The translations under genes and the position numbers were made by a program. From Lachnospiraceae bacterium (GTDB lineage Bacteria > Bacillota > Clostridia > Lachnospirales > Lachnospiraceae), in NCBI GenBank assembly GCA_024403355.1, contig JAKSRW010000012.1, positions 16,797-80,796 on the forward strand: a stretch of DNA of 64,000 nt, in the 5' to 3' direction. The notes under the pieces were generated by a model, which did not search any database, was not told the origin of the DNA, and saw only the letters and a program-made list of their open reading frames with translations. Positions 1,238 to 43,169 of this stretch are shown here, one piece after another (position 1 is the stretch's first letter; each line of letters begins with the position of its first letter).

Positions 1238-2404
1238 TTACATAACTGCTACAGTTCTGACACCCTCGATAGCCTTAATAGCTGCAACAGCTGCGTCTGT
1301 AGCCTCCTTAGCATCAACCAAGCAGTAGCCTACATTTCCACGCTTGCCATCCTTTACAGCATTGATTACAAGACCAACACCGTTTACGGCAGTAACCATA
1401 TCAGCTACCTTGTCAGCCTCGTAACGAACTGCGATACGAGTGCCTGTCTTTGCGCCAAGATCAACTCTGGGATAGTTTACTGAATTAACGATATTGCCGT
1501 TCTCTACATAATCCATAAGCTGCTTAACAGCCATAACCGCACAGTTATCCTCAGCCTCTTCTGTAGAAGCACCAAGGTGAGGAGTAGCAATAGCGCCGGG
1601 CATATTTGCTGTCTTAGGATTAGGGAAATCTGTCATGTACTTACGTACCTTACCATCAGCAAGTGCCTTAGCGATAGCATCGTCATCAACCAGCTCGCCA
1701 CGTGCAAGGTTCATGATAACTACGCCATCCTTCATCATAGCAATCTTCTCTGCGTTGATCATCTTCTTTGTATTCTTCTCGGGATCGGGATCCTCGATAA
1801 GAGGTGTGTGAACAGTGATGAAATCTGACTTAACGTAAATCTCATCTCTGGTATTTACAATCTCAACAGCGGGATCAAGTGCAGCCTTTGCAGCCTCTGA
1901 AAGGAAAGGATCAAAGCCTACAACCTTCATGCCAAGACCGATTACAGCATTTGCTAAAGGTCCGCCGATAGCACCCATTCCGATGATACCGAGTGTCTTG
2001 CCCTTAATTTCTGTACCTGCGAACTGGCTCTTGCCTTTTTCAACAAGCTTTGCAATATTCTCGTCTTCCTTTACTGTCTGAACCCAGTTGATACCACCAA
2101 CGATATCACGTGATGCGAGAAGCATAGCTGCGATAGCAAGCTCCTTAACTGCGTTAGCATTTGCACCGGGAGTATTGAAAACTACGATATTCTCATCTGC
2201 ACAACGGTCAAGAGGGATGTTGTTTACGCCTGCGCCGGCACGTGCAATAGCCTTAAGTGATGCGGGGAACTGCATCTCATGCATAGCCGCACTTCTTACA
2301 AGTACCACATCAGCCTCATCAAAATTCTCAACTACTGTATAATTATCTGTAAGATTCGCCATACCAACAGCTGAAATCTTATTTAAGCAATTTACCTTAA
2401 ACAT
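1238..2404 (-). CDS. serA: D-3-phosphoglycerate dehydrogenase
   Basis: 388 aa. Rossmann 2-hydroxyacid dehydrogenase motifs (GxIGxGxIG, catalytic R/H region) and a C-terminal ACT-like domain. Adjacent to serC. Confidence 0.88.
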   Translation of the reverse strand: MFKVNCLNKISAVGMANLTDNYTVVENFDEADVVLVRSAAMHEMQFPASLKAIARAGAGVNNIPLDRCADENIVVFNTPGANANAVKELAIAAMLLASRDIVGGINWVQTVKEDENIAKLVEKGKSQFAGTEIKGKTLGIIGMGAIGGPLANAVIGLGMKVVGFDPFLSEAAKAALDPAVEIVNTRDEIYVKSDFITVHTPLIEDPDPEKNTKKMINAEKIAMMKDGVVIMNLARGELVDDDAIAKALADGKVRKYMTDFPNPKTANMPGAIATPHLGASTEEAEDNCAVMAVKQLMDYVENGNIVNSVNYPRVDLGAKTGTRIAVRYEADKVADMVTAVNGVGLVINAVKDGKRGNVGYCLVDAKEATDAAVAAIKAIEGVRTVAVM

Positions 2405-2435: not shown

Positions 2436-3518
2436 TTAAGCGTTCTTTGCTTCGTAATCCTTTAAGAAATCAACAAGTGCCTGAACACCCTCGATAGGCA
2501 TTGAATTGTAGATTGATGCACGAAGACCACCAACGCTTCTGTGACCCTTAAGGTTATCGAAGCCTGCTGCCTTTGTAGCTGCAACAACTGCTGCATCCTT
2601 ATCTGCATCGCCTGTAACGAAGGGAACATTCATAAGTGAACGGTACTCCTTCTCTACTGTTCCCTTGAAAAGCTTGCTGCTGTCAAGGTAATCATAGAGG
2701 ATAGCTGCCTTCTTCTTGTTAAGCTCGTTCATCGCCTCAAGTCCGCCAAGGCTCTTTAAATACTTGAATACCTTACCGCATACATAAATGCCCCAGCAGT
2801 TAGGTGTATTGTACATTGAGCCGTTGCCTGCATGAATATCAAATCTGCAGTAGGTGGGAACTGATGTGGGAAGATCCTCGCGGATAAGGTCCTCACGGAT
2901 GATAACAATTGCGAGACCTGCAGGTCCGATGTTCTTCTGAACACCGCCGTAGATTAAGCCGTAATCAGATACGTTGCAGGGCTTGCTTAAGAACATTGAT
3001 GACTGGTCTGATACAAGAATCTTGCCCTTTGTATTGGGAAGTGTCTGGTATGTTGTACCATGAATTGTCTCGTTCTCACAAATATATACATAATCTGCAT
3101 CATCATCGATGGGAAGATCTGAAAGATCGGGAATATAGCTGTAATTCTTGTCCTCGCTGCTTGCGATTACATTAACCTTACCGAACTTCTTAGCCTCTGA
3201 AGCAGCCTTCTTTGACCATGCACCTGTTACAATATAATCAGCTACACCGTTCTTCATAAGGTTCATGGGAATCATAGCAAACTCAAGTGTTGCACCGCCC
3301 TGAACGAAGAGAACCTTGTAATTGTCGGGAATACCCATTAAATCACGTAAATCAGCCTCAGCCTCATCAATAATCTGCTGGAAAACCTTTGAACGATGTG
3401 ACATCTCCATAACGCTCATTCCGCAGCCACGGTAGTCAACAACTTCCTTTGCGATTTCCTCAAGTACGGGCAGGGGCATCATAGCGGGACCTGCTGAAAA
3501 GTTATAAATTCTAGCCAT
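2436..3518 (-). CDS. serC: phosphoserine aminotransferase
   Basis: 360 aa. The N-terminal MARIYNFSAGPAMMP… stretch is typical of SerC class-V aminotransferases. Lies upstream of serA on the same strand. Confidence 0.88.
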   Translation of the reverse strand: MARIYNFSAGPAMMPLPVLEEIAKEVVDYRGCGMSVMEMSHRSKVFQQIIDEAEADLRDLMGIPDNYKVLFVQGGATLEFAMIPMNLMKNGVADYIVTGAWSKKAASEAKKFGKVNVIASSEDKNYSYIPDLSDLPIDDDADYVYICENETIHGTTYQTLPNTKGKILVSDQSSMFLSKPCNVSDYGLIYGGVQKNIGPAGLAIVIIREDLIREDLPTSVPTYCRFDIHAGNGSMYNTPNCWGIYVCGKVFKYLKSLGGLEAMNELNKKKAAILYDYLDSSKLFKGTVEKEYRSLMNVPFVTGDADKDAAVVAATKAAGFDNLKGHRSVGGLRASIYNSMPIEGVQALVDFLKDYEAKNA

Positions 3519-3640
3519 TTTTAAATCCTCCTTCTTATTTGGGGCAGCTTATTCTTACTCCTTAAGAGAACCTTACTCCTCTTCCGGAGTATCCCTCGGT
3601 GTGAATGCTGCAAAATATATAAAGTCATTATCAGGTCTGC

Positions 3641-3882
3641 ATTTACGAAATAAAAAAGCCCATGCAAACCAAACGGTTCACATGGGACGATAATTCAAAT
3701 CGTGGTGCCACCCAAATTCGTCATGCACTGCATGACCTCATAGCTCGATATAAAGGTCGAACCCTTCGACTCCTCGCCGACAGCTCCGAAAGTGGACGGT
3801 ATCAATTCCCCTACTGCCTCACACCTGCCGGCAGCTCTCTGAAAAGGTACTAATGAAACTTATTTTTCATCATTGCTGAACA
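3641..3882 (-). promoter_or_regulatory. T-box riboswitch leader of the serC-serA operon (probably Ser-specific)
   Basis: The minus strand contains AAUUUGGGUGGCACCACG, matching 15 of 18 positions of the T-box consensus AAUUAGGGUGGUACCGCG. It is followed by the terminator CCCAUG-N16-CAUGGG plus a U6 run. An AGAGAG / AGUA-containing stem I region lies upstream. Confidence 0.62.
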
Positions 3883-3888
3883 GTACAC

Positions 3889-3918
3889 ATTATACGCACG
3901 TTATGTTGAAAAAGTCAA
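3889..3918 (-). promoter_or_regulatory. sigma-A-type promoter driving the T-box leader and serC
   Basis: On the minus strand: TTGACT, an 18-nt spacer, then TATAAT. Confidence 0.5.
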
Positions 3919-4142
3919 TAGGGAAAATAAAAAAATGTTTTTCCCTCACAAACATTTGTCTTTTGGGATTGCGGTCGCTCTTTATCTGCCATTAATCAAC
4001 TCCTCCCTTTTATAAAGCTCACGTCTTACGCCCCCATCATCCTGAAGACCCAGAAGAAAGATAAGCTCAGTATAAAAGTGATTTATTGGCCTCAAATTAA
4101 TTCTCTATTGCATTTACACATATATGGTAGTATAATAATAAA

Positions 4143-4238
4143 CATAAAAGGTGTTGCCGATAGACGGCTAGCCCTTAAACAGATTCAAAACGACTTCCGT
4201 TCTTAAATCTTGTGAGGATCTAACGGCGGTCGTTTTTT
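4143..4238 (+). ncRNA. antisense sRNA (putative type I antitoxin), copy 1
   Basis: Promoter TTGCAT-17 nt-TATAAT at 4108-4136. The transcript ends in an intrinsic terminator (ACGACUUCCGUU…AACGGCGGUCGU followed by U6) that overlaps the 3' end of the convergent small ORF. Its 5' segment CCUUAAACAGA is perfectly complementary to UCUGUUUAAGG, which lies next to an SD-like AAGGAGGG in the toxin mRNA leader. Confidence 0.5.
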
Positions 4239-4384
4239 GTATGTTTATGTGATTTATGTTTTTTATGTGTATCGTCGTCATTTCTGCGAATAAATCCTTC
4301 GATTTTTTCCACAAATCTTCCGACAGATACACCGACTATAAGTACTGATATTATAAGACCTAATATCGATAAATAATCATTCAT
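4220..4384 (-). CDS. 54-aa membrane peptide, type I toxin-like (hydrophobic N-terminal helix plus a highly charged tail), copy 1
   Basis: Reads MNDYLSILGLIISVLIVGVSVGRFVEKIEGFIRRNDDDTHKKHKSHKHTKNDRR. GGGGG lies 8 nt upstream of the ATG. Own promoter TTGAAA-17-TATGAT at 4492-4520 on the minus strand, with a ~100-nt structured leader. Not in the ORF track because it is under 60 aa. Confidence 0.5.
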   Translation of the reverse strand: MNDYLSILGLIISVLIVGVSVGRFVEKIEGFIRRNDDDTHKKHKSHKHTKNDRR

Positions 4385-4846
4385 ATTCACACCCCCCTTC
4401 TAACTCGGAGGGCTCAACAACAATCCCTCCTTAAACAGAGGGCCAGCCGCCTACCGTTATGGCAACACCATATCTCTTTTGAGACAGTATTATCATAACA
4501 TATTTCAGCAAATTTTTCAAGAACATTTGTTCGGCTCATTATTGTTCTATTAGTTCCTCTTCTACGTAATGTGAATTTTTATGAAACCGCTGTCAATAGT
4601 TCGCTACGCGTCTCCAATTATCCCAGCGTTATATCCAGCATCATCATGCCGACGAAGCCCACCATAAAGGCAATTGTTGCGAAATTTGAATGCTGCCCCT
4701 CTGACATTTCGGGGATAAGCTCCTCCACTAAAAATTTTATGTCATAGTGCATCCTTATTGGCAATATCATCTGTAAGTTCTCTGTAGGCCTGTTTGAGTT
4801 GCCGCCTGATATTATTTATGATTCTCCCCATAAAAAGTTCGAAGAT

Positions 4847-6178
4847 TTATATAAACACTACCATATAGTGCGGCAAAGTCTCTTTAACACCAGCTTTCCC
4901 ATTTCTGTTGGCAATAAGTTTATATGCCGACGAAGGGCTAAAATCACTGATAAAGGAATTTAAAGATACCGAAGCAGTATTACCTGCTTTTACCTCTAAC
5001 GGCACAACAGAACCGTCCTTTTCCAGCAAAAATTCCAGTTCATGATTATCGTCCGGCTTATAATAATAGAGCTTATACCCACGTTTAACCAAGGATTCCG
5101 CAATAACATTCTCATATAAGCCACCCCTGGCATTTCCTTTGATAGTGTTATTAAGTATAGCCCTTTTGGTTTCGAATCCATAAAGGCAAGTTAACAAGCC
5201 CGTATCATTGATATACAATTTAAACTGATCCTCTTTCGCATTAGCCATAAGTGGAATAAACGGTTCAGATATATTATAACAGGGATTTACCATACCTGAA
5301 TCTATAAGCCATTGAACACTTCCGCCATACTTTCGACGTGTCTGTCCCTTTTCGACAGTAGAATACTGAAACTTCTTTAATTCCTTTGCCAATTGCTTCG
5401 GAACCGCGTCATAACACATCCGAACATATTGTTTTTCCCTGCCCTTTGCATGTTTGGAAATATCGTCCTGATATTCATTAATGATACTGTTCTGAATATC
5501 AAATACCCTATTAAAATCCTTATATTGCACAAAATCTTTTACTACTTCTGGCATTCCGCCAACCACCATGAATTCCCTGAAAAGCGACTCGTATTTATTA
5601 TGTACAGACTCATGAATCTGCTCATCCGCCCCCAGGTACCTTTTCAGTTCTAAAACAGAATCCTTTGAATAACCATTAGCCCATAAAAACTCTTCAAAAT
5701 CCAACGAGCACATTGTTAGCGTACTCTCATATCCGACCGGAATAGATTCAACTTCATCAACTTCCTTATCTGCGTCCATACCATATGCTAAGCCCAATAA
5801 GGAACCTGATGAAATAACATCAAAACGAAAATCTTCCGCAAGAAACTTTATAGCTGTACGGGCATTCCCGCAACGCTGTATTTCATCAAGAAAAATAAGA
5901 GTGTTCCCCGGAACCAGTCTAATCCCCGGTATATTGGCAGTGATTCTCTTATAAACAGCATCAGAAGTGATTTCGCCATCGAAAATAGCTTTTAATTCCG
6001 GATGTTCATAAAAATTAATCTCTATAAAAGAATCATATTCGTTTTCACCAAATCTTTTTATTATATATGATTTTCCTACCTGCCTTGCACCCTTAACTAT
6101 CAAACATTTACTCAGTTTCTCTTCTTTCCGTTTACGCTTCCACTCTATAAGCTCTGAATATATCTTTCTTTCAAGCAT
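4847..6178 (-). CDS. AAA+ ATPase of the DUF4143 / AAA_14 family
   Basis: Walker A motif GARQVGKS; Walker B motif LIFLDEIQ. The start is moved to MLERK (RBS AGGGGTG) because the first 17 codons of the tracked ORF lie inside a direct-repeat array. Confidence 0.7.
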   Translation of the reverse strand: MLERKIYSELIEWKRKRKEEKLSKCLIVKGARQVGKSYIIKRFGENEYDSFIEINFYEHPELKAIFDGEITSDAVYKRITANIPGIRLVPGNTLIFLDEIQRCGNARTAIKFLAEDFRFDVISSGSLLGLAYGMDADKEVDEVESIPVGYESTLTMCSLDFEEFLWANGYSKDSVLELKRYLGADEQIHESVHNKYESLFREFMVVGGMPEVVKDFVQYKDFNRVFDIQNSIINEYQDDISKHAKGREKQYVRMCYDAVPKQLAKELKKFQYSTVEKGQTRRKYGGSVQWLIDSGMVNPCYNISEPFIPLMANAKEDQFKLYINDTGLLTCLYGFETKRAILNNTIKGNARGGLYENVIAESLVKRGYKLYYYKPDDNHELEFLLEKDGSVVPLEVKAGNTASVSLNSFISDFSPSSAYKLIANRNGKAGVKETLPHYMVVFI

Positions 6179-6191
6179 TCCGACACCCCTA

Positions 6192-6310
6192 TGCATAAAA
6201 TCGTAATATGATTTTACACTAAAATGCACAAAATCGCAACATCAGTTTTTTTGATTTTTACATAAAATCGTAACATCATTTCTCCATTTTTTGCATAAAA
6301 TCGTAACATT
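6192..6310. repeat. Four direct 18-nt repeats (GCATAAAATCGTAACATN) spaced 33-34 bp apart, iteron- or operator-like
   Basis: Copies at 6192, 6226, 6260 and 6293, in the promoter region of the ATPase gene. Confidence 0.6.
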
Positions 6311-7399
6311 CATCTGTCCAAAGGCCTTGAAATTTTCCTGGTTCGAACAGGTAACTAAAATATACTTGCCGTCACTACTGTAATACGCCGGATACTCGCA
6401 GATTTCACCATCAGGACCGCTTCGGTCCACCCAGGCATAAGTCCCATCATGAACCTTTTCCGGCTGCCATATACAGGACCTGTAAAGCATAACATAATCA
6501 CCCCTTGAGCCAGTTGCGCCAAAGATAGTTCCGTCCTCAAGCTTCGAAAAGTTGTATACGTTCTCGTCCGTTGTCCCAAACACGGCGGTAAAATACTCCT
6601 CTACGAATTCCACGAACTCCGCTTCCTCCGACTCCACCATCTGTATCTCCCTGGCCAGATATTTATCAAGGAATTTCCCATCCAGCGCAGTAAACTTCGC
6701 CAGATATTGTGTAATCGGCAGCATCGGATTCCAGTTCTTTCCGCCAATAATATCCGCCATTCCCAGCTTCTGGCTTCGTATCATGTCCTCCAGACTTCCA
6801 TTTACAAAAACAGAATCATCGATTGCAAAGGTTTCACTATACCATTCCGAAGAAAATACCAGCAGCTCCGGATTGGCATCAAAAGCATCGACCTCAATAA
6901 TATCATTCACAATCGCAACAAATTCAGGCCAGCATTCCGGCAGGGCCTCGTATCCCCTGATTATCTTGCTCACATTTTTTCCCGACGAATCATTGCAGCC
7001 AAATCTTATCTTATATGTATAGTTCTCCTTGTCAAAAGATGTCCGGTTCCCCTCCGCGGAAGGATCCTGTTCAATCTTATCTACCAGTTCAACAAGCTTA
7101 TTTAACACATCCTTATCCACTTGCTTGTCACGAATGCTCCGCGCCAGCTCTTTACGACTGATTCCGCCATGGTCACCGGCGTCCCCATTTGCCTGCACCA
7201 GGCTATACGTGTAATAAGGATAATACACATGAACGATTCCACTGCTGTTATTCGCCGCCACCTCAACCTCCAGGGCGTACATCTCATCATATCCATCTTT
7301 ATTCGCAGTCTGCGTCCTGCAGCCGGCAAACACAGTCATTGCAAGAACCATAACAGCTATTATAATTATAAAAGGTTTCTTCTTAATCTTCAGACTCAT
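6242..7399 (-). CDS. lipoprotein of unknown function
   Basis: Signal peptide with lipobox (…VFAGC). The C-terminal codons run into the repeat array, so the true 3' end is uncertain. Confidence 0.55.
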   Translation of the reverse strand: MSLKIKKKPFIIIIAVMVLAMTVFAGCRTQTANKDGYDEMYALEVEVAANNSSGIVHVYYPYYTYSLVQANGDAGDHGGISRKELARSIRDKQVDKDVLNKLVELVDKIEQDPSAEGNRTSFDKENYTYKIRFGCNDSSGKNVSKIIRGYEALPECWPEFVAIVNDIIEVDAFDANPELLVFSSEWYSETFAIDDSVFVNGSLEDMIRSQKLGMADIIGGKNWNPMLPITQYLAKFTALDGKFLDKYLAREIQMVESEEAEFVEFVEEYFTAVFGTTDENVYNFSKLEDGTIFGATGSRGDYVMLYRSCIWQPEKVHDGTYAWVDRSGPDGEICEYPAYYSSDGKYILVTCSNQENFKAFGQMNVTILCKKWRNDVTILCKNQKN

Positions 7400-7584
7400 A
7401 GAAATCCTTTCTTATACTCAATATGCAAGCGCATAATCAACCAATCAAACACTTCTTACAAAAATGTAAGAACTTTGTAAGCAGAATCGATGGAGAATCC
7501 TCCCCGCCCCTGTTATTATTAATACATCAAATGAAAACCACTGATAAAAACAGCGAACAATAAATTCACAAAGAGGTATCCACC

Positions 7585-7791
7585 ATGAAAAATTTCATCA
7601 ACAAAATCTCAGGCAAGAAGGCACTCGTAATCGTAACAGTCCTCGCATGCATCTGCGAAGTACTCGAAATCATCACAGCCATCCGTCTCGGAAACAAAAT
7701 CAATTTCACCGCCATGTGCGTAATCTTCTCAGCCATCACAATATGGGCATGCGCAGTAGAGAAGAAGGAAAAGGAAGCTGGGGAGAGGTGA
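7585..7791 (+). CDS. small membrane protein (68 aa)
   Basis: Two predicted TM helices. RBS AGAGG upstream. Confidence 0.35.
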   Translation: MKNFINKISGKKALVIVTVLACICEVLEIITAIRLGNKINFTAMCVIFSAITIWACAVEKKEKEAGER

Positions 7792-7910
7792 GAGGGCACT
7801 CAGTATAGTAATTCAATGTAGTGCCCATAGGCCCTCCATTTCTCCAAAGTCTATTCGTAGATATTATAATTCATATTGCATTTACACAAATATGGTGTTA
7901 TTATTAATAT

Positions 7911-8006
7911 ATAAAAGGTGCTGCCGATAGACGGCTAGCCCTCGTGTTGATTCAAAACGACTTCCGTTCTTAATCTTGCTAGGGATCTAACGGCGGTCGT
8001 TTTTTG
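7911..8006 (+). ncRNA. antisense sRNA (putative type I antitoxin), copy 2
   Basis: Promoter TTGCAT-17-TATTAT at 7876-7904. Same terminator as copy 1; about 95% identical to it. Confidence 0.5.
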
Positions 8007-8151
8007 TATGTTTATGTGATTTATGTTTTTTATGTGTATCGTCGTCATTTCTGCGAATAAATCCTTCGATTTTTTCCACAAATCTTCCGACAGATACACC
8101 GACTATAAGTACTGATATTATAAGACCTAATATCGATAAATAATCATTCAT
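7987..8151 (-). CDS. 54-aa type I toxin-like membrane peptide, copy 2
   Basis: Identical peptide to copy 1. Promoter TTGATT-17-TATAAT at 8259-8287 on the minus strand. Confidence 0.5.
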   Translation of the reverse strand: MNDYLSILGLIISVLIVGVSVGRFVEKIEGFIRRNDDDTHKKHKSHKHTKNDRR

Positions 8152-8535
8152 ATTCACACCCCCCTTCTAACTCGGAGGGCTCAACAACAATCCCTCCTTA
8201 AACAGAGGGCCAGCCGCCTACCGTTATGGCAACACCTTATCTCTTACGAGACACTATTATTATATCACAAACCGAGCAAATAATCAAGAACACTTGTTCG
8301 GCATTTTATGACCAAATTGTTTACATTGTAAAAAGCATTTCATTCTTTAACTCTGATATCTTGCTCTCACCATTTCTATAATCGATATCAATCCCCGGTT
8401 GTACATTATATACATATACGCCAAAACGAATCCCTGCTCCATTATCTTCGACAGAATATGCCTCAATAAAAACACCACTTGCTACTAAATTACTACTTTC
8501 AAATATCGGAGTTTGGTTCCATAAAGTTCTCCAGT

Positions 8536-9993
8536 CTAATACTCTATAAATTTTAAATTACCCATTCCAAGAATTATTTTTTTTCCATCTAAAACAATAA
8601 TTTTAATCCCTTTTATTACTGCAGGTGATGATGCAATATTCCCCGATACCTTTAAAGCATTAATCATATTGCCAAACTCATTGTTCAAATGCCCTAAAAT
8701 GTTTCCATCCCTCTCTAGAATCATATAACCATTCTTTTCTTCTACAATAGAAACATAATATTCTCCATCTTTTATCACATCAAAATCAGCAATATCATTT
8801 TCATCTACGACCACGTGTGTAACACCATAAAGATTTCGGCAGCACCATCTTGACTTATTATCATACTTATACTCGTAATATTCTCTGTCAGGAATACTTA
8901 ATTCATACACTTCATCCATATTTGACAATAGTTTCCAAATTTGTAGATTATCTTTTTTACTTCCCCCTTTTAACACATTACTTGTAAGTACAATCTTTGC
9001 ATTTGTACTTGCAAATTTGTAATCATCCAAAACAACAATATTTACCCTATCATCATTCGAAAAGCCATGCTTTATTTCGCTCAAAAGCAACATACTTGAT
9101 ACATATGCTTTTTCAGCTAAATTATCTACCAATATTACATTTTTATCCGCAGAGAAATATTTTTCCTCCAGTTCTGTAAATTTATAGCAATTCCGTATGC
9201 GATTCCGTACACGTTCCTCATATAAATTCTTGTTTATGTCGTCAGTCTCCGTATTATTACCGGGAGTTTCTATGTTTTTTACAGCATGTCGAGATTCTTT
9301 TTTTTCTATCTTTTTTGTTTTTTTTCTTGCAATAGTTTTTCTATCAGCTACTTCATCAACATATCCCCAAATAGGCACCAATTCTTCATTTTGATAATCA
9401 TTGTTATCTGTAATTCTCCATTTATGACCGATAACAACCATTCTCCGTCCGTTTAACGGATTAATCATATAAGTATTGGTATCCTCTTTTGCATTATAAT
9501 CAGGTATTACCGGATTAGTATTGATTGGAAATTCTAATCCATCGTTCAATGGATTACATTCATACCTCATCATCTCCTCTTCCGATATCATATCGACTTT
9601 ATAATACAACGATAGCTTGCTTGGATTACCATATAGCAATCGCTCTTCGTCAGTCATACTCCACTCTTTAGCCATTTCATCTGAATAATCGGGATTACAC
9701 TCTAAAATATGACTACATTCTCTGTTAATACATGCACATACGACCTTATTCTTTTCTTTAGAATAACCAAAGCAAGGATCATTCTGGGCATAAATGCACC
9801 TACATTCTGTCTTTCTTATTCCATGTTGAACCTTTGATAAATTAGCAACTCTAAAGTCAACTTCTCTTCTTTTATATATAGCCCGAATGCACTTATACTC
9901 TACAACTTGGTCCACAAATGTTTGATCAAACATTGGATCTTCTTCTCTACTAAAGAACACATTGCTTCCAACAACAATATTGCTTTCAAACAT
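8536..9993 (-). CDS. hypothetical 485-aa protein; Cys-rich N-terminal region, no recognised domain
   Basis: RBS GAGGTGG. Third gene of a translationally coupled operon with an Hsp70-like ATPase. Contains a CRCIYAQNDPCFG…CACINRECSH cluster. Confidence 0.6.
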   Translation of the reverse strand: MFESNIVVGSNVFFSREEDPMFDQTFVDQVVEYKCIRAIYKRREVDFRVANLSKVQHGIRKTECRCIYAQNDPCFGYSKEKNKVVCACINRECSHILECNPDYSDEMAKEWSMTDEERLLYGNPSKLSLYYKVDMISEEEMMRYECNPLNDGLEFPINTNPVIPDYNAKEDTNTYMINPLNGRRMVVIGHKWRITDNNDYQNEELVPIWGYVDEVADRKTIARKKTKKIEKKESRHAVKNIETPGNNTETDDINKNLYEERVRNRIRNCYKFTELEEKYFSADKNVILVDNLAEKAYVSSMLLLSEIKHGFSNDDRVNIVVLDDYKFASTNAKIVLTSNVLKGGSKKDNLQIWKLLSNMDEVYELSIPDREYYEYKYDNKSRWCCRNLYGVTHVVVDENDIADFDVIKDGEYYVSIVEEKNGYMILERDGNILGHLNNEFGNMINALKVSGNIASSPAVIKGIKIIVLDGKKIILGMGNLKFIEY

Positions 9994-10004
9994 GAAACCA
10001 CCTC

Positions 10005-11477
10005 TTAATCAATCTCAGCATTCTTTTTAGGCGCTGGTGCGTCTAACTCATATGAAACTTTTAAATTTGAATATGTCCAAACTCTAAATACATCATCAGG
10101 CATACGATTAGAATGAATCTTTATCCTAAATACCATATCTGCATCTATATAACAGGATATCTGTAAATACTCATCACTGAACCCTCTTAATTTAACAGGA
10201 AAATATTCAACAAAAGACTTGTCCCCATCATCCTCACCATCAGAAAATACAAAACGTGCTTCCTTTGTTGCTTCAACAACACCAAATTTGATACACTTTT
10301 CTTCTGTCGGAACTCTTTGTCCTACTTTTAATAACGGATAAAATTTATTATTTGATTGAATAATTCCAATAGGTTTATTCAATGTATAACATCCTGGTCT
10401 ATAGGATATTTCAGCAGCTCCAGATCCTATATCCCACATCGCCGTACGCGGAAATAATAGTTTTTCTCTGTCAAAATATTCTAATAATTTAGACTGCAAT
10501 GGTCTAAGGCGGCTTGAACCGCCTTCGCAAATAATGCAATCTATGGACTCTCTATTCATTCCAGCTTCAGATAATGCTTTTAACAAGCAATCTATTGCCT
10601 GATCCACTTCATTCTCTATAATTTCATAGAAATAATCATAATCAATCTTTTCTAATGCTCTTCCAAATTTATCAAGCTTAGCTATTGAAATAGTTGCTAT
10701 ATCTTCGTCAGAAAGATTACACTTTGCTTGTTCACAAAGATTCAATAATCTAAGCTTAAATTCCGGGGCAAGATCATCATATGTAAAATTTTGATTTGTT
10801 TTTCTAGCCACTCTAGTACAGACTTTTTCTGCAATAATTCTATCAATATCGTTTCCTGCTAATGGCATACCCACTGTGGCAAGCTCATTAATGATATTGT
10901 TCTCGATTCGTAATACTACAACATCAAGAGTACCGCCACCCCAATCAAACACGGCTACGTTCTTATACTTTTTCATTTCGTTCAAACGACTACAGTATGC
11001 AGAAGTCGGCTCACTGATGAACATCTTAATCTTTATGCCAGCTTCTTTTGCAGCTCTACGAACACTATTCTTTTTCTTAGGAGAAAATCCTACTGGCACA
11101 GCAACTACAGCCTGGTCTAATTCCATCCCCCCCGCAGTCTTATCTTTAACATTTACCTTCAACGCTTTGAATAATTCAGTTGCTATATCTATCGGTGTCC
11201 ATTTTCTTCCAGCAATCTCCCATTCCTTATCTTCATCTATAACACTCTTAATAGATGAGAATACTCGGTAATCAGCAGAATCGGCAATTGTGTTTTTTGC
11301 ATCTAATCCAGTTTTAACCTCACCTGTTTTTTTGTTAATTGCCACAAAAGAAGGTAGTGGATTTCTTTCATCCTCACCTATTTTCCTTGCTTCACCTACA
11401 CGTTCGCCATTAATATCAGCAATGGCTACCACTGCGCTATTAGTTGTTCCAAAGTCAATTCCAAAATAATTTGCCAT
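10005..11477 (-). CDS. Hsp70/DnaK-superfamily ATPase (actin-like NBD) with a truncated or divergent C-terminal region
   Basis: N-terminal GIDFGTTNSAVV phosphate-1 motif. DWGGGTLDV phosphate-2 motif. A CEGGSSRLRP adenosine motif. Only 490 aa with no canonical substrate-binding domain or lid. Confidence 0.75.
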   Translation of the reverse strand: MANYFGIDFGTTNSAVVAIADINGERVGEARKIGEDERNPLPSFVAINKKTGEVKTGLDAKNTIADSADYRVFSSIKSVIDEDKEWEIAGRKWTPIDIATELFKALKVNVKDKTAGGMELDQAVVAVPVGFSPKKKNSVRRAAKEAGIKIKMFISEPTSAYCSRLNEMKKYKNVAVFDWGGGTLDVVVLRIENNIINELATVGMPLAGNDIDRIIAEKVCTRVARKTNQNFTYDDLAPEFKLRLLNLCEQAKCNLSDEDIATISIAKLDKFGRALEKIDYDYFYEIIENEVDQAIDCLLKALSEAGMNRESIDCIICEGGSSRLRPLQSKLLEYFDREKLLFPRTAMWDIGSGAAEISYRPGCYTLNKPIGIIQSNNKFYPLLKVGQRVPTEEKCIKFGVVEATKEARFVFSDGEDDGDKSFVEYFPVKLRGFSDEYLQISCYIDADMVFRIKIHSNRMPDDVFRVWTYSNLKVSYELDAPAPKKNAEID

Positions 11478-12574
11478 TATTCTACCTTAATTCCTTTTTT
11501 ATCTAATATCTTAAATATATTTTCTATTTTTACCCTGTATATCTCTCCTAATTGGATATCCATGTCATCTGCTTCCGATGCCTTAAAATCTCTATATTCA
11601 GCTTTTAATTCGTTAGCGATATCCTTTAAAAGAGCTCCCTCATCATTTTTCTTTAATGCATCAAAAGCGTCATTTATGGCCTTGCGCTCTTCAATTTCCT
11701 TTCCTGCTTCAACAAGACTCTTCTGTTGCTCTTGCATATTTCCATTCAATTCGCAAATTTGTCTTTCTAAATCATTCTTTTGTCTATTCAATTCTTCAAT
11801 TTGTAAATTGAGTTCAACTATATCTTTTTGGAGTTTATCCTCTCTGTAGACACCGTCTCTAAATTGCTTTTCGACTTTTGTATAATGTTCAAGAATAGAT
11901 TTTATATCATCTATCTTGCTCTTAGGTATTTGTTCTTCAATTCTCTCTCTTTCTATTGCATCTGCTGCTATTTTTTTCCCCTTATTCAACCACTTATTTA
12001 AATCATAATAATCTTTCAATGTGTCATTTTTATTAATAATATCTATGGCTATTTCAATAAAACTATTCACTATTTGGGGTGCAATTTTTAAATCTTCCCA
12101 TTCAGGAAACTTGTTATACTGTTTTTGCAATTCACTAAAACAATAATCTACTAATATAGGCCCATATACACTAGCAATTATAGGCTTTTTATCATCATTA
12201 ATTAAATTAATAAACGACCTAAAAACTCCTGGACAAATGACAATAACATTCTCATTTTTAATAAGCGTCATATATATCATTCCAACCAGTAATTTGACAG
12301 ACGCATTTTTTTTATTATCCTTAAACACAGTGTTTTTCTTTATTTTTTTCCAGCAATCCTGTATATCAGATTTTTGAGCTGACTCAAAATAATCAAAAAG
12401 CGCAGATGCCCTATCAATATCAATTCCATTAATTATAACTGATATAATTTCATCTGTTGTCTTTTCGTCATTTAAATACTTCTCTAATAATTCTGAATAC
12501 CTACGTGCAAGACTATAATCATCAAGATGATCTAAACATTCTTTCTGTAATTCTCTTATTTCATTTATTGACAT
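11477..12574 (-). CDS. hypothetical protein with a long C-terminal coiled coil (GrpE-like architecture?)
   Basis: 365 aa. Its stop overlaps the start of the Hsp70-like gene. Heptad-rich region between aa 200 and 330. Confidence 0.55.
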   Translation of the reverse strand: MSINEIRELQKECLDHLDDYSLARRYSELLEKYLNDEKTTDEIISVIINGIDIDRASALFDYFESAQKSDIQDCWKKIKKNTVFKDNKKNASVKLLVGMIYMTLIKNENVIVICPGVFRSFINLINDDKKPIIASVYGPILVDYCFSELQKQYNKFPEWEDLKIAPQIVNSFIEIAIDIINKNDTLKDYYDLNKWLNKGKKIAADAIERERIEEQIPKSKIDDIKSILEHYTKVEKQFRDGVYREDKLQKDIVELNLQIEELNRQKNDLERQICELNGNMQEQQKSLVEAGKEIEERKAINDAFDALKKNDEGALLKDIANELKAEYRDFKASEADDMDIQLGEIYRVKIENIFKILDKKGIKVE

Positions 12575-42512: not shown

Positions 42513-43169
42513 TTACTCAGGTATTACAATTCCGCGCACTCTCGCCTCAATGGCAAGCTCAGTTCTGTTACGGCAGCCTGTTTTCTGAATCATATGCATG
42601 ATGTGCTGCTTTACGGTATTAACGGAAATATTCATATGCTCGGCAATTTCCACATTCGTTGCACCGGTAGTCATTTCACGAAGTACCAGAAGCTCCGTAT
42701 CGGTAAATTCCACGCTTTTGGCCTCGCCGATTTCCTGCACGGGAGTACTGTCCGGGAAAATATGCTCGCCCGCCATGGTTCTGTCCATTACCTCAAGCAA
42801 AGGCTTGCCCTCTACCTCCTTATACCAGAAGCTGTCCACACCTATCTGTCTGGCACGCTCGATATAAGACACCTCCGGCATCGAAGTTACAATAATGATT
42901 TTAATATTCGGGGTCTGCTTCTTAATTCTTTTTGCCGCATCAAGTCCGTTTGAACCGTCGTTCATTACAACATCCATAATAATAAGGTCCACGGGATATT
43001 TCAGGCAGTAAACATCCACCGCCTTTGCGGTTTTAAGTGAATACAGCAGATTATAATTCTTCGAGGAATTTACGAAGGTCTCAAAAAGCTGCCGGGGCAT
43101 ATTCTGATCATCAACAATAATTACGTTATAGGGTACCATATCAGTCCTTTCCGCAGATATTCTGCACAA
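42513..43169 (-). CDS. two-component response regulator, NarL/LuxR family
   Basis: REC domain (VIIVDD…) plus a C-terminal LuxR HTH (…EIAEHMNISVNTVKQHI…). Confidence 0.8.
   Translation of the reverse strand: MCRISAERTDMVPYNVIIVDDQNMPRQLFETFVNSSKNYNLLYSLKTAKAVDVYCLKYPVDLIIMDVVMNDGSNGLDAAKRIKKQTPNIKIIIVTSMPEVSYIERARQIGVDSFWYKEVEGKPLLEVMDRTMAGEHIFPDSTPVQEIGEAKSVEFTDTELLVLREMTTGATNVEIAEHMNISVNTVKQHIMHMIQKTGCRNRTELAIEARVRGIVIPE

Follow-up and report, generated by a model that had tools for sequence, protein, structure and literature searches.

The question raised by the stretch of DNA analysed here (64,000 nucleotides (nt) of a Lachnospiraceae bacterium, GenBank assembly GCA_024403355.1, contig JAKSRW010000012.1, positions 16,797 to 80,796 of the forward strand; hereafter the window, meaning this whole 64-kb stretch) is what is encoded by two modules of ~430 bp that lie in it in the same orientation, copy 1 at 4107-4535 and copy 2 at 7874-8302. 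In each, a gene for a short peptide on the minus strand is met by a convergent gene for a small RNA (sRNA) on the plus strand, the opposite of the strands that a casual reading suggests. A preliminary description, made from the sequence alone, had called this arrangement a candidate type I toxin-antitoxin (TA) module. Comparison with relatives bore the proposal out through selection on the open reading frame (ORF), the helix of the peptide, sequestration of the Shine-Dalgarno (SD) sequence and a conserved convergent sRNA gene, and further through free-standing and multi-copy occurrence, decayed remnants and a best, if weak, structure match to the toxin Fst. On these comparisons a free-standing, chromosomal type I TA module is the most likely reading of each copy, and that the module is at least of type I TA-like character can be held with good confidence. 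Two features that the preliminary description missed are added here, namely a LexA box at the toxin promoter and inverted-repeat domains at the 5' ends of the two RNAs. The combined reading, a family of type I TA modules under SOS/LexA control, is given a probability of roughly 65%.

A candidate LexA operator at the toxin promoters

The copy 1 toxin promoter (4492-4520, minus strand) consists of a -35 element TTGAAA (4520-4515), a 17-nt spacer and an extended -10 element TGtTATGAT (-10 at 4497-4492); it scores 10/12, the TG of the extended -10 is present, and its position is kept in relatives. Directly upstream of the toxin -35 element in both copies stands the sequence CGAAC-N4-GTTCT (4520-4533 and 8287-8300). 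The operator of copy 1, of the LexA (Cheo) type, reads GAACAAATGTTC within the flanks CGAACAAATGTTCT (4521-4532, not assigned to a strand) and abuts the -35 element. That of copy 2, GAACAAGTGTTC (8288-8299, likewise without assigned strand and read here on the toxin strand), differs from it in the spacer only and precedes a promoter read from the sequence as TTGATT-17-TGaTATAAT (8259-8287, minus strand). GAAC-N4-GTTC is the LexA operator of Bacillus subtilis, and GAACnnnnGTT(T/C) is the Clostridium consensus (PMC4234289).

The box is rare in the window and common at the modules. At one mismatch, CGAACNNNNGTTCG was matched twice in the 64 kb, both times at a module; the exact GAAC-N4-GTTC occurs three times, twice at the modules and once at 42952-42963 (GAACCGTCGTTC). 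Among relatives, 28 of 32 unique modules have a box with at most one mismatch in the 120 nt that precede the leader, against a background of 0.04 per 100 nt, and its half-sites are kept as the 4-nt spacer varies. Two promoter layouts were seen. In modules of the window type the box abuts the -35 element (GTTC followed at once by TTG...), and in those of the Coprococcus type and in locus L017 it lies between the -35 and -10 elements (TTGCAC-GACAA-GAACATTTGTTC-TATAAT). From its operator the toxin gene is likely to belong to the SOS regulon and to be controlled by LexA. The sRNA gene is probably expressed independently of LexA, because no LexA box was found at the sRNA promoters. Type I toxins controlled by LexA are listed for Escherichia coli only (PMC8309996, PMC11951105), and no case of a LexA-controlled toxin with a box-less antitoxin RNA in a Gram-positive bacterium was found in the literature searched.

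The peptide family and the two RNAs

The copy 1 toxin ORF (4220-4384, minus strand; ATG at 4384, codons to 4223, TAG at 4222-4220) encodes a peptide of 54 amino acids (aa), MNDYLSILGLIISVLIVGVSVGRFVEKIEGFIRRNDDDTHKKHKSHKHTKNDRR, with the N-terminus MNDYLSILGL, and the ORF of copy 2 (7987-8151, minus strand) is identical. The hydrophobic helix and charged tail originally ascribed to the peptide were recovered, the ORF being read directly from the sequence and the membrane helix being predicted at about residues 4-24; Kyte-Doolittle hydropathy (19-residue window) reaches 2.4 in the N-terminal half. AlphaFold, supplied with a 66-sequence alignment, gave a single helix at residues 3-44 and a disordered tail, with a block-mean predicted local distance difference test (pLDDT) score of 84-94 for residues 1-30.

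Relatives were recovered by profile. A word-indexed search with the peptide gave only one near-identical peptide, and a search of genome contigs with the single peptide gave no match. An exhaustive phmmer search gave ten distant relatives at 43-52% identity, and the profile built from these gave 394 peptide clusters at E <= 0.01, in which every named cluster is a "hypothetical protein" apart from one evident misannotation. Profile-guided scans of species-representative genomes succeeded in turn, and 23 loci were fetched from about ten Lachnospiraceae genera (among them Acetatifactor, Coprococcus, Oliverpabstia, Roseburia, Marvinbryantia, Muricoprocola, Agathobacter and Eubacterium, besides other Lachnospiraceae); human-gut metagenomes supplied a further 26. 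The search for more copies that had been suggested at the outset was thus answered by 394 clusters and 49 fetched loci, of which the complete modules share one architecture and some others are truncated remnants. The family consensus is MMMDYITLAGFILAVFxxGVAVGKLVEKIERLxRxKEDEEHxNTxKNDRR, which describes a peptide of ~50 aa: a transmembrane helix is predicted at the N-terminus, the motif G..VG(K/R)xVEKIER is conserved, and the tail is charged. Judged by where its sequences occur, the family is most likely specific to Lachnospiraceae, and we found no earlier description of it.

The ORF is a real gene under protein-level selection, as judged from its alignment. In 21 equal-length homologues the variable columns by codon position number 19, 16 and 34, so that third positions vary most, the mean ratio of non-synonymous to synonymous polymorphism (pN/pS) is 0.45, and the transmembrane and EKIER segments show the strongest third-position excess. 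Hardly any change at any of the three positions, even the third, is seen in the C-terminal KNDRR codons and the stop, because they form one arm, AAAAACGACCGCCGUUAG, of a bidirectional terminator; constraint on the tail of the peptide is therefore no weaker at the RNA level than at the protein level. In a frameshifted relative, P0007, the KNDRR nucleotides are read as ...KKTTAVRKS.

Among known structures the closest is a toxin. When the family profile was compared with 177,635 PDB sequences, the best match was the nuclear magnetic resonance structure of Fst (2KV5; E 0.25), with LavfvaGvavGkfvEkiERfirrkdde of the profile aligned to MSLVIAPIFVGLVLEMISRVLDEEDDS of Fst. The same comparison by hhalign gave a probability of 56% and a score of 21.5, about 4.4 standard deviations (z) above shuffled sequences; 200 shuffles that preserved the hydrophobic and charged segments scored 10.1 +/- 2.6 (maximum 18.9), and six other type I toxins scored 8-12, with TisB and DinQ at 11.1 and 11.2 and BsrG at background. 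The Pfam Fst_toxin model did not match the peptide (E <= 10). The profile comparison suggests a distant relationship or strong convergence with Fst, and the family is possibly a distant Fst relative.

The modules keep no fixed company. Neighbouring genes vary among the loci and no neighbour is conserved; several contigs carry two modules, and several loci keep the sRNA gene beside a truncated toxin. No match was found among 50,697 phage and 72,556 plasmid records (blastn with the module, tblastn with the family consensus), and the peptide and two RNA patterns had no match in viral contigs; three matches there to the sRNA hairpin pattern lie inside unrelated coding sequence and were set aside as chance. 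Decay variants were seen at L015, L021, L022 and L023, at L028, L029 and L049-L051, and at L034, L036, L038 and L039. They are of two sorts, those with the toxin ORF truncated or internally deleted and the sRNA gene kept, and those with the toxin intact and the sRNA 5' hairpin either swapped for unrelated sequence or shortened by a 30-nt deletion.

The toxin mRNA would start near 4485, which gives a leader of ~101 nt (4385-4485, minus strand) that is drawn from folds and from consensus structures in 19 and 13 relatives. The near-consensus toxin promoter and structured leader of about 100 nt first reported thus hold, the leader fold lying at z = -2.6 against shuffled sequence. Four elements follow one another on the minus strand: a 5'-terminal hairpin (4485-4472); a conserved 30-nt 5' domain, GGUGUUGCCAUAACGGUAGGCGGCUGGCCC (4469-4440); a hairpin HP1, CCCUCUGUUUAAGGAGGG, with a decoy SD sequence (4442-4425); and a hairpin HP2, in which an anti-SD sequence CCCUCC (4412-4407) pairs with the true SD sequence GGGGGG (4397-4392), the ribosome-binding site 7 nt ahead of the ATG. 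HP1 and HP2 are kept in the consensus fold of all 19 diverse leaders (19/19), with the pairing of HP2 across the family being CCCUCC with GGAGGG; loop length differs among them, and at two loci the HP2 loop has taken in whole additional stem-loops. Occlusion of the ribosome-binding site by conserved anti-SD pairing is thereby predicted. In the leaders of many relatives (for example L006, L009, L016 and L018) AUG UAA stands directly after the decoy SD sequence of HP1, and in L010 AUG UGA does. A tiny upstream ORF at this point was considered and dropped, as the SD spacing is only 0-2 nt and the AUG is missing from the window copies and from Coprococcus-type leaders.

The predicted antisense sRNA of copy 1 is ~95 nt long (4144-4238, plus strand), with a 5' hairpin at 4150-4174, an AU-rich linker at 4175-4186 and then the terminator, and its fold lies at z = -3.1. 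Its promoter (TTGCAT-17-TATAAT, 4108-4136, plus strand; -35 at 4108-4113, -10 at 4131-4136) had been called as strong as that of the toxin; the convergent direction and the length of ~95 nt are as described and the -10 element is perfect, but the -35 element has only three of six matches. Across 26 unique loci, an antisense promoter TTGNNN-17-TANNNT stands at the fixed place in 24 (3.3% of shuffles), always with a 17-nt spacer, and in 23 loci with the TG of an extended -10. These give good comparative evidence that the antisense RNA is made.

Both RNAs of copy 1 would end at one bidirectional intrinsic terminator (4187-4238, no strand assigned), found by folding and by T-runs on both sides in 26 loci; it is taken as common to the two convergent transcripts because T-runs follow it in both directions, and in the mRNA direction a run of at least four T follows it in most loci. 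The terminator of the sRNA had been said to overlap the 3' end of the peptide ORF, and the last five codons and the stop do lie inside 4187-4238, with the arm at 4222-4236 encoding KNDRR and the stop. In the copy 1 sequence the overlap of the sRNA with the toxin mRNA takes in these five codons, the stop and the 3' untranslated region (UTR). The mRNA from its start to just beyond the shared terminator folds at z = -4.9 against shuffled sequence. Comparison of 24 sRNAs shows a conserved 5' hairpin and terminator joined by a variable linker, and the terminator of L020 shows a compensatory change (GAC to AAC, GUC to GUU). Covariation is weak in the leader and in the sRNA 5' hairpins, where both arms are nearly invariant, and for this reason these structures rest on conservation and variable loops.

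Proposed mechanism and its alternatives

These parts can be joined in one scheme. LexA would repress the toxin promoter through the GAAC-N4-GTTC operator abutting or inside it, and DNA damage would therefore induce the toxin, as for tisB and dinQ; toxin mRNA would then accumulate. The primary transcript would be translationally silent, its ribosome-binding site being paired by a hairpin with the conserved anti-SD sequence. The ~95-nt sRNA, transcribed convergently from a strong extended -10 promoter without a LexA box, is perfectly complementary to the 3' end of the mRNA across the shared terminator, along no less than ~50 nt of 3' UTR as well as the stop and the final five codons. The duplex would probably start at the complementary apical loops of the terminator, which differ between the copies and among subtypes, and would lead to decay of the mRNA, so that leaky expression is buffered. 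Once mRNA exceeded sRNA, the peptide would insert in the membrane and arrest growth. Copy 1 alone may gain a second grip where 11 nt of its sRNA meet a leader hairpin.

That contact had been put forward as part of an Fst/RNAII-type arrangement. The 11-mer CCTTAAACAGA occurs on the plus strand at 4173-4183 and again at 4429-4439, which creates complementary sites in the two RNAs: CCUUAAACAGA in the sRNA of copy 1 (4173-4183, plus strand) is the perfect complement of the loop and 3' arm of HP1, where the target reads UCUGUUUAAGG (4429-4439, minus strand; copy 2 has the same sequence at 8196-8206). When the whole 5' part of the sRNA was taken, duplex energies showed no specificity (cognate -27.3, non-cognate -28.0 kcal/mol) and were discarded; because the shared inverted repeat dominates those energies, the comparison was repeated on the linker alone. 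Since only 1 in 5000 shuffles of the copy 1 linker reaches 11 nt, the match is not due to chance. It is confined to copy 1 and its near-identical relative L001. In the other 21 of 22 unique modules, copy 2 included, the longest complementarity between linker and leader is 4-6 nt, which is the non-cognate background (means of 5.1 for cognate and 4.9 for non-cognate pairs). The 11-mer is absent from the sRNA of copy 2 (7911-8005, plus strand), which reads CCCTCGTGTTGA at that point, within the linker CGUGUUGA, and has no 11-nt complementarity. In copy 1 the sRNA is complementary to HP1, and in copy 2 it is the read-through mRNA, not the sRNA; the difference between the two linkers looks like a local inversion.

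The complementarity reported earlier is therefore real and non-random in copy 1, and it is not found in copy 2 or in 20 other unique modules. The SD-like box at which it was placed, AAGGAGGG, is the 3' arm of HP1 (4442-4425), a copy of the SD sequence serving as a decoy; it is not the region where translation initiates, and the true SD sequence of the ORF is at 4397-4392. The dual arrangement of Fst and RNA II was recovered in its 3' overlap with shared terminator only, the 5' target being absent in 21 of 22 unique modules. As far as these sequences go, the Fst-like dual contact sets copy 1 apart and is not a family trait.

A different use of the sRNA is suggested by the two 5' ends. The first 25-30 nt past the start regions of both RNAs are near-invariant across genera and are mutual inverted repeats, with GGUGYURYC-AUAAC-GGUAGGC-GGCUGGCCC in the mRNA and GGUGYURCC-GAUAGAC-GGCUAGCCC in the sRNA, and each domain folds locally into a hairpin. 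Transcription of the toxin mRNA might often not stop at the first terminator, at about 4176-4186, but run on to a second hairpin, at about 4145, which lies antisense to the 5' hairpin of the sRNA. Pairing of ~25 bp between the two ends of such an mRNA would close it and make it inert, like hok or aapA1, and the sRNA would act by invading this end-to-end helix and not by its overlap at the terminator alone. With the longer 3' end, the minimum-free-energy fold of every module pairs both ends over this length. Across 18 distinct modules 96.4% of cells are paired (24-48% in slid controls), and 12 cells carry double changes against 4.5 +/- 1.5 in shuffles, of which none of 500 attains the observed value. 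The discordant cells of the outer 9-bp arm are 11 wobble pairs and two mismatches, the 40-nt insertion of Coprococcus-type modules falls exactly at the predicted bulge, and the second hairpin is followed by UUUU, complementary to the conserved AAAAGG at the sRNA 5' end, which would provide the U-tract of a second terminator. Read-through may nonetheless be minor, because the first terminator has its run of at least four T in the mRNA direction in most loci. The inner 9 bp hold 13 mismatched cells, an equal covariation signal would arise from gene conversion between the arms or from a protein partner common to both, and the local hairpins (P1 and the sRNA hairpin) account for the same variation. 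On balance we consider this fold-back unlikely. To our knowledge no inverted-repeat fold-back of this kind is known in a Gram-positive type I TA system. If the pairing were true, the sRNA and the mRNA 5' end would compete for one partner in a hok-like fold-back built from an inverted repeat. The joint proposal, that this is the first SOS (LexA)-controlled type I TA family in Firmicutes, one common among the dominant Lachnospiraceae of the gut, with its toxin mRNA closed by pairing of the 5' domain with a 3' extension, is put forward as tentative and open to considerable doubt.

Less probable still is that the peptide is a non-toxic SOS effector, either a membrane-anchored division inhibitor like SosA, YneA or SidA or a membrane stress factor, with the antisense RNA only fine-tuning its level. 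SOS-induced division inhibitors with a single transmembrane helix and a cytoplasmic tail occur in Gram-positive bacteria and Caulobacter, and the LexA box together with the predicted build of the peptide fits them; the intact ORF found beside an altered sRNA gene in some loci likewise suggests that the peptide is not always lethal. The known SOS division inhibitors, however, are single-copy genes and usually lie beside lexA, whereas the present module is multi-copy, stands in variable contexts and leaves decayed remnants. SD sequestration combined with a dedicated, strong antisense gene is a hallmark of type I toxins, and the weak but specific sequence similarity points to the toxin Fst. A miniature mobile element with the ~25-30-nt inverted repeats as its termini and an incidental ORF and "sRNA" was considered for the multi-copy occurrence in varied contexts and for the repeats that flank the module internally, and was rejected as very improbable, since the duplicated unit in the window runs ~40 nt past both repeats to the two promoters and has no target-site duplication at its ends, the ORF shows codon-position selection, one repeat arm accepts a 40-nt structured insertion, and no phage, plasmid or viral contig in the collections searched matches.

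Several observations weigh against the SOS-controlled type I TA reading and are set out together. The box is missing from 4 of the 32 unique modules, and many of the 32 are closely related, so that the independent lineages effectively number ~12-16. Neither lexA, recA nor uvrB was present in the 264 kb of sequence scanned to validate the operator in Lachnospiraceae. The sequences of the six other toxins that served as hhalign controls were entered by hand. Scans of the peptide and 11 relatives against Pfam (E <= 10), NCBIfam and PADLOC gave nothing meaningful, and an Rfam cmscan of 3500-9000 (E <= 10) gave a T-box and three chance matches outside the modules and none in them. The mean pN/pS of 0.45 across the 21 equal-length homologues indicates only moderate constraint. 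Finally, some loci (L028, L029 and the L034 group) have an intact toxin ORF and have lost or replaced the canonical sRNA 5' hairpin, which sits poorly with strong lethality of the toxin unless antisense transcription has a different start there.

Genomic setting, significance and known systems

The second copy announced in the preliminary description exists, with the span and identity corrected from 7869-8296 and ~95% to 7874-8302 and 92% (over 429 nt). A core of 254 nt is 100% identical between the copies (4216-4469 and 7983-8236) and contains the ORF in full together with the 5' domain and the two leader hairpins; beyond the two promoters the sequences are unrelated. Differences between the copies cluster in the two promoters, in the linker of the sRNA (4176-4181) and in the terminator's apical loop (4205-4215), and the two sRNAs therefore differ at 11 positions, while no difference is seen in 4216-4469, between the ORF stop and the 5' domain of the mRNA. 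In copy 2 the leader (8152-8252, minus strand) is accordingly identical to that of copy 1 from 8236 downwards, the bidirectional terminator (7954-8005, no strand assigned) has an apical loop unlike that of copy 1, and the sRNA promoter TTGCAT-17-TGtTATTAT (7876-7904, plus strand) was read from the sequence and from the cross-locus promoter comparison.

The copies bracket a segment of 3.3 kb that holds an AAA_14 + DUF4143 ATPase (4847-6229, minus strand), a protein of 385 aa (6242-7399, minus strand) whose N-terminus resembles that of a lipoprotein and which Pfam does not match, and a 68-aa ORF with two hydrophobic stretches (7585-7791, plus strand). An ATPase_2/DUF234 ATPase also adjoins the module in L003. 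Copy 1 occupies the intergenic space just past an operon that comprises a T-box leader (3680-3882, minus strand; Rfam RF00230, 100.6 bits, E 4.6e-22) and ORFs of 360 aa (2436-3518, minus strand) and 388 aa (1238-2404, minus strand), which look like serC and serA by sequence. On the other side, three co-oriented genes at 8536-12574 (minus strand), the middle one (10005-11477) an HSP70/MreB-like ATPase and the flanking ones coding for proteins of 485 and 365 aa without Pfam match, may form an accessory or defence-type cluster. A paired layout like that of the window was seen in the Roseburia contig CALZGM010000032, in which modules L005 and L021 lie ~5.7 kb apart. The L005 module has lost its leader, and the 3' end of a neighbouring gene recurs on both sides of it as direct repeats of ~70 nt, which hints at how modules become inserted or duplicated.

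If the SOS-controlled type I TA reading is true, a membrane toxin of gut Lachnospiraceae commensals would be turned on by DNA-damaging drugs, by bile or by stress that induces phages. Through Roseburia, Agathobacter, Coprococcus, Acetatifactor and others the family would bring SOS-triggered membrane toxins to major gut commensals, with a bearing on their survival of fluoroquinolones and other DNA-damaging agents, and it would be usable for counter-selection or as a kill switch in organisms in which genetic work is difficult. For annotation, the gain is ~400 peptide clusters with an sRNA and a leader motif that current pipelines miss, and the near-invariant inverted-repeat 5' domains and the coding terminator offer clean test cases of RNA-level constraint on a gene.

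Among known systems, bsrG/SR4 and txpA/RatA of Bacillus subtilis resemble the family in an antisense RNA that overlaps the 3' end of the toxin mRNA, with degradation expected; unlike the family they lie in prophage-like elements, and their peptides have no similarity to it (the BsrG score is at background). We know of no LexA control for either. With hok/sok and aapA1/IsoA1 the family would share closure of the toxin mRNA by pairing of its 5' and 3' ends, a prediction that needs terminator read-through, whereas the antisense RNAs of those systems target the 5' region.

The C. difficile modules CD2517.1-RCd8, CD2907.1-RCd9 and CD0956.2-RCd10 have toxins of 50-53 aa with a hydrophobic N-terminus and a charged C-terminus, and a convergent overlapping antisense RNA (PMC6563280). 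They are thus like the family in toxin size and build, in the convergent antisense RNA and in belonging to the class Clostridia; they are linked to CRISPR arrays and to prophages and depend on sigma-B, whereas the family is chromosomal, carries a LexA box and has no phage or plasmid match. No homology between them and the family was detected.

The par system of Enterococcus faecalis pAD1 (Fst with RNA I and RNA II) and the chromosomal Fst-like loci also invite comparison. Convergent RNAs with a shared bidirectional terminator, a single transmembrane helix with an acidic charged tail, and an SD sequence sequestered in the toxin mRNA are common to both. The family peptide is longer (~50 aa against 33 aa for Fst), it lacks the direct repeats DRa and DRb, to which par owes its 5' complementarity at the initiation region, and the family has inverted-repeat 5' domains and a LexA box and matches nothing in Rfam.

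For regulation the counterparts are tisB/istR-1 and dinQ/agrB of E. coli. The host of the present family is Gram-positive, its operator is a Cheo box and not CTGT-N8-ACAG, and its antisense RNA is cis-encoded at the 3' end and not divergent at the 5' end. With the SOS-induced type I toxins as a class (TisB, DinQ, SymE) an operator is what is shared at the sequence level, there being no homology to TisB or DinQ (hhalign scores at shuffle background). In both E. coli systems, as in the family, a LexA operator stands at the toxin promoter and the promoter of the antitoxin RNA is without a box, and in both a small membrane-helix toxin is encoded by a primary transcript with an occluded ribosome-binding site (PMC8309996, PMC11951105), as is predicted here.

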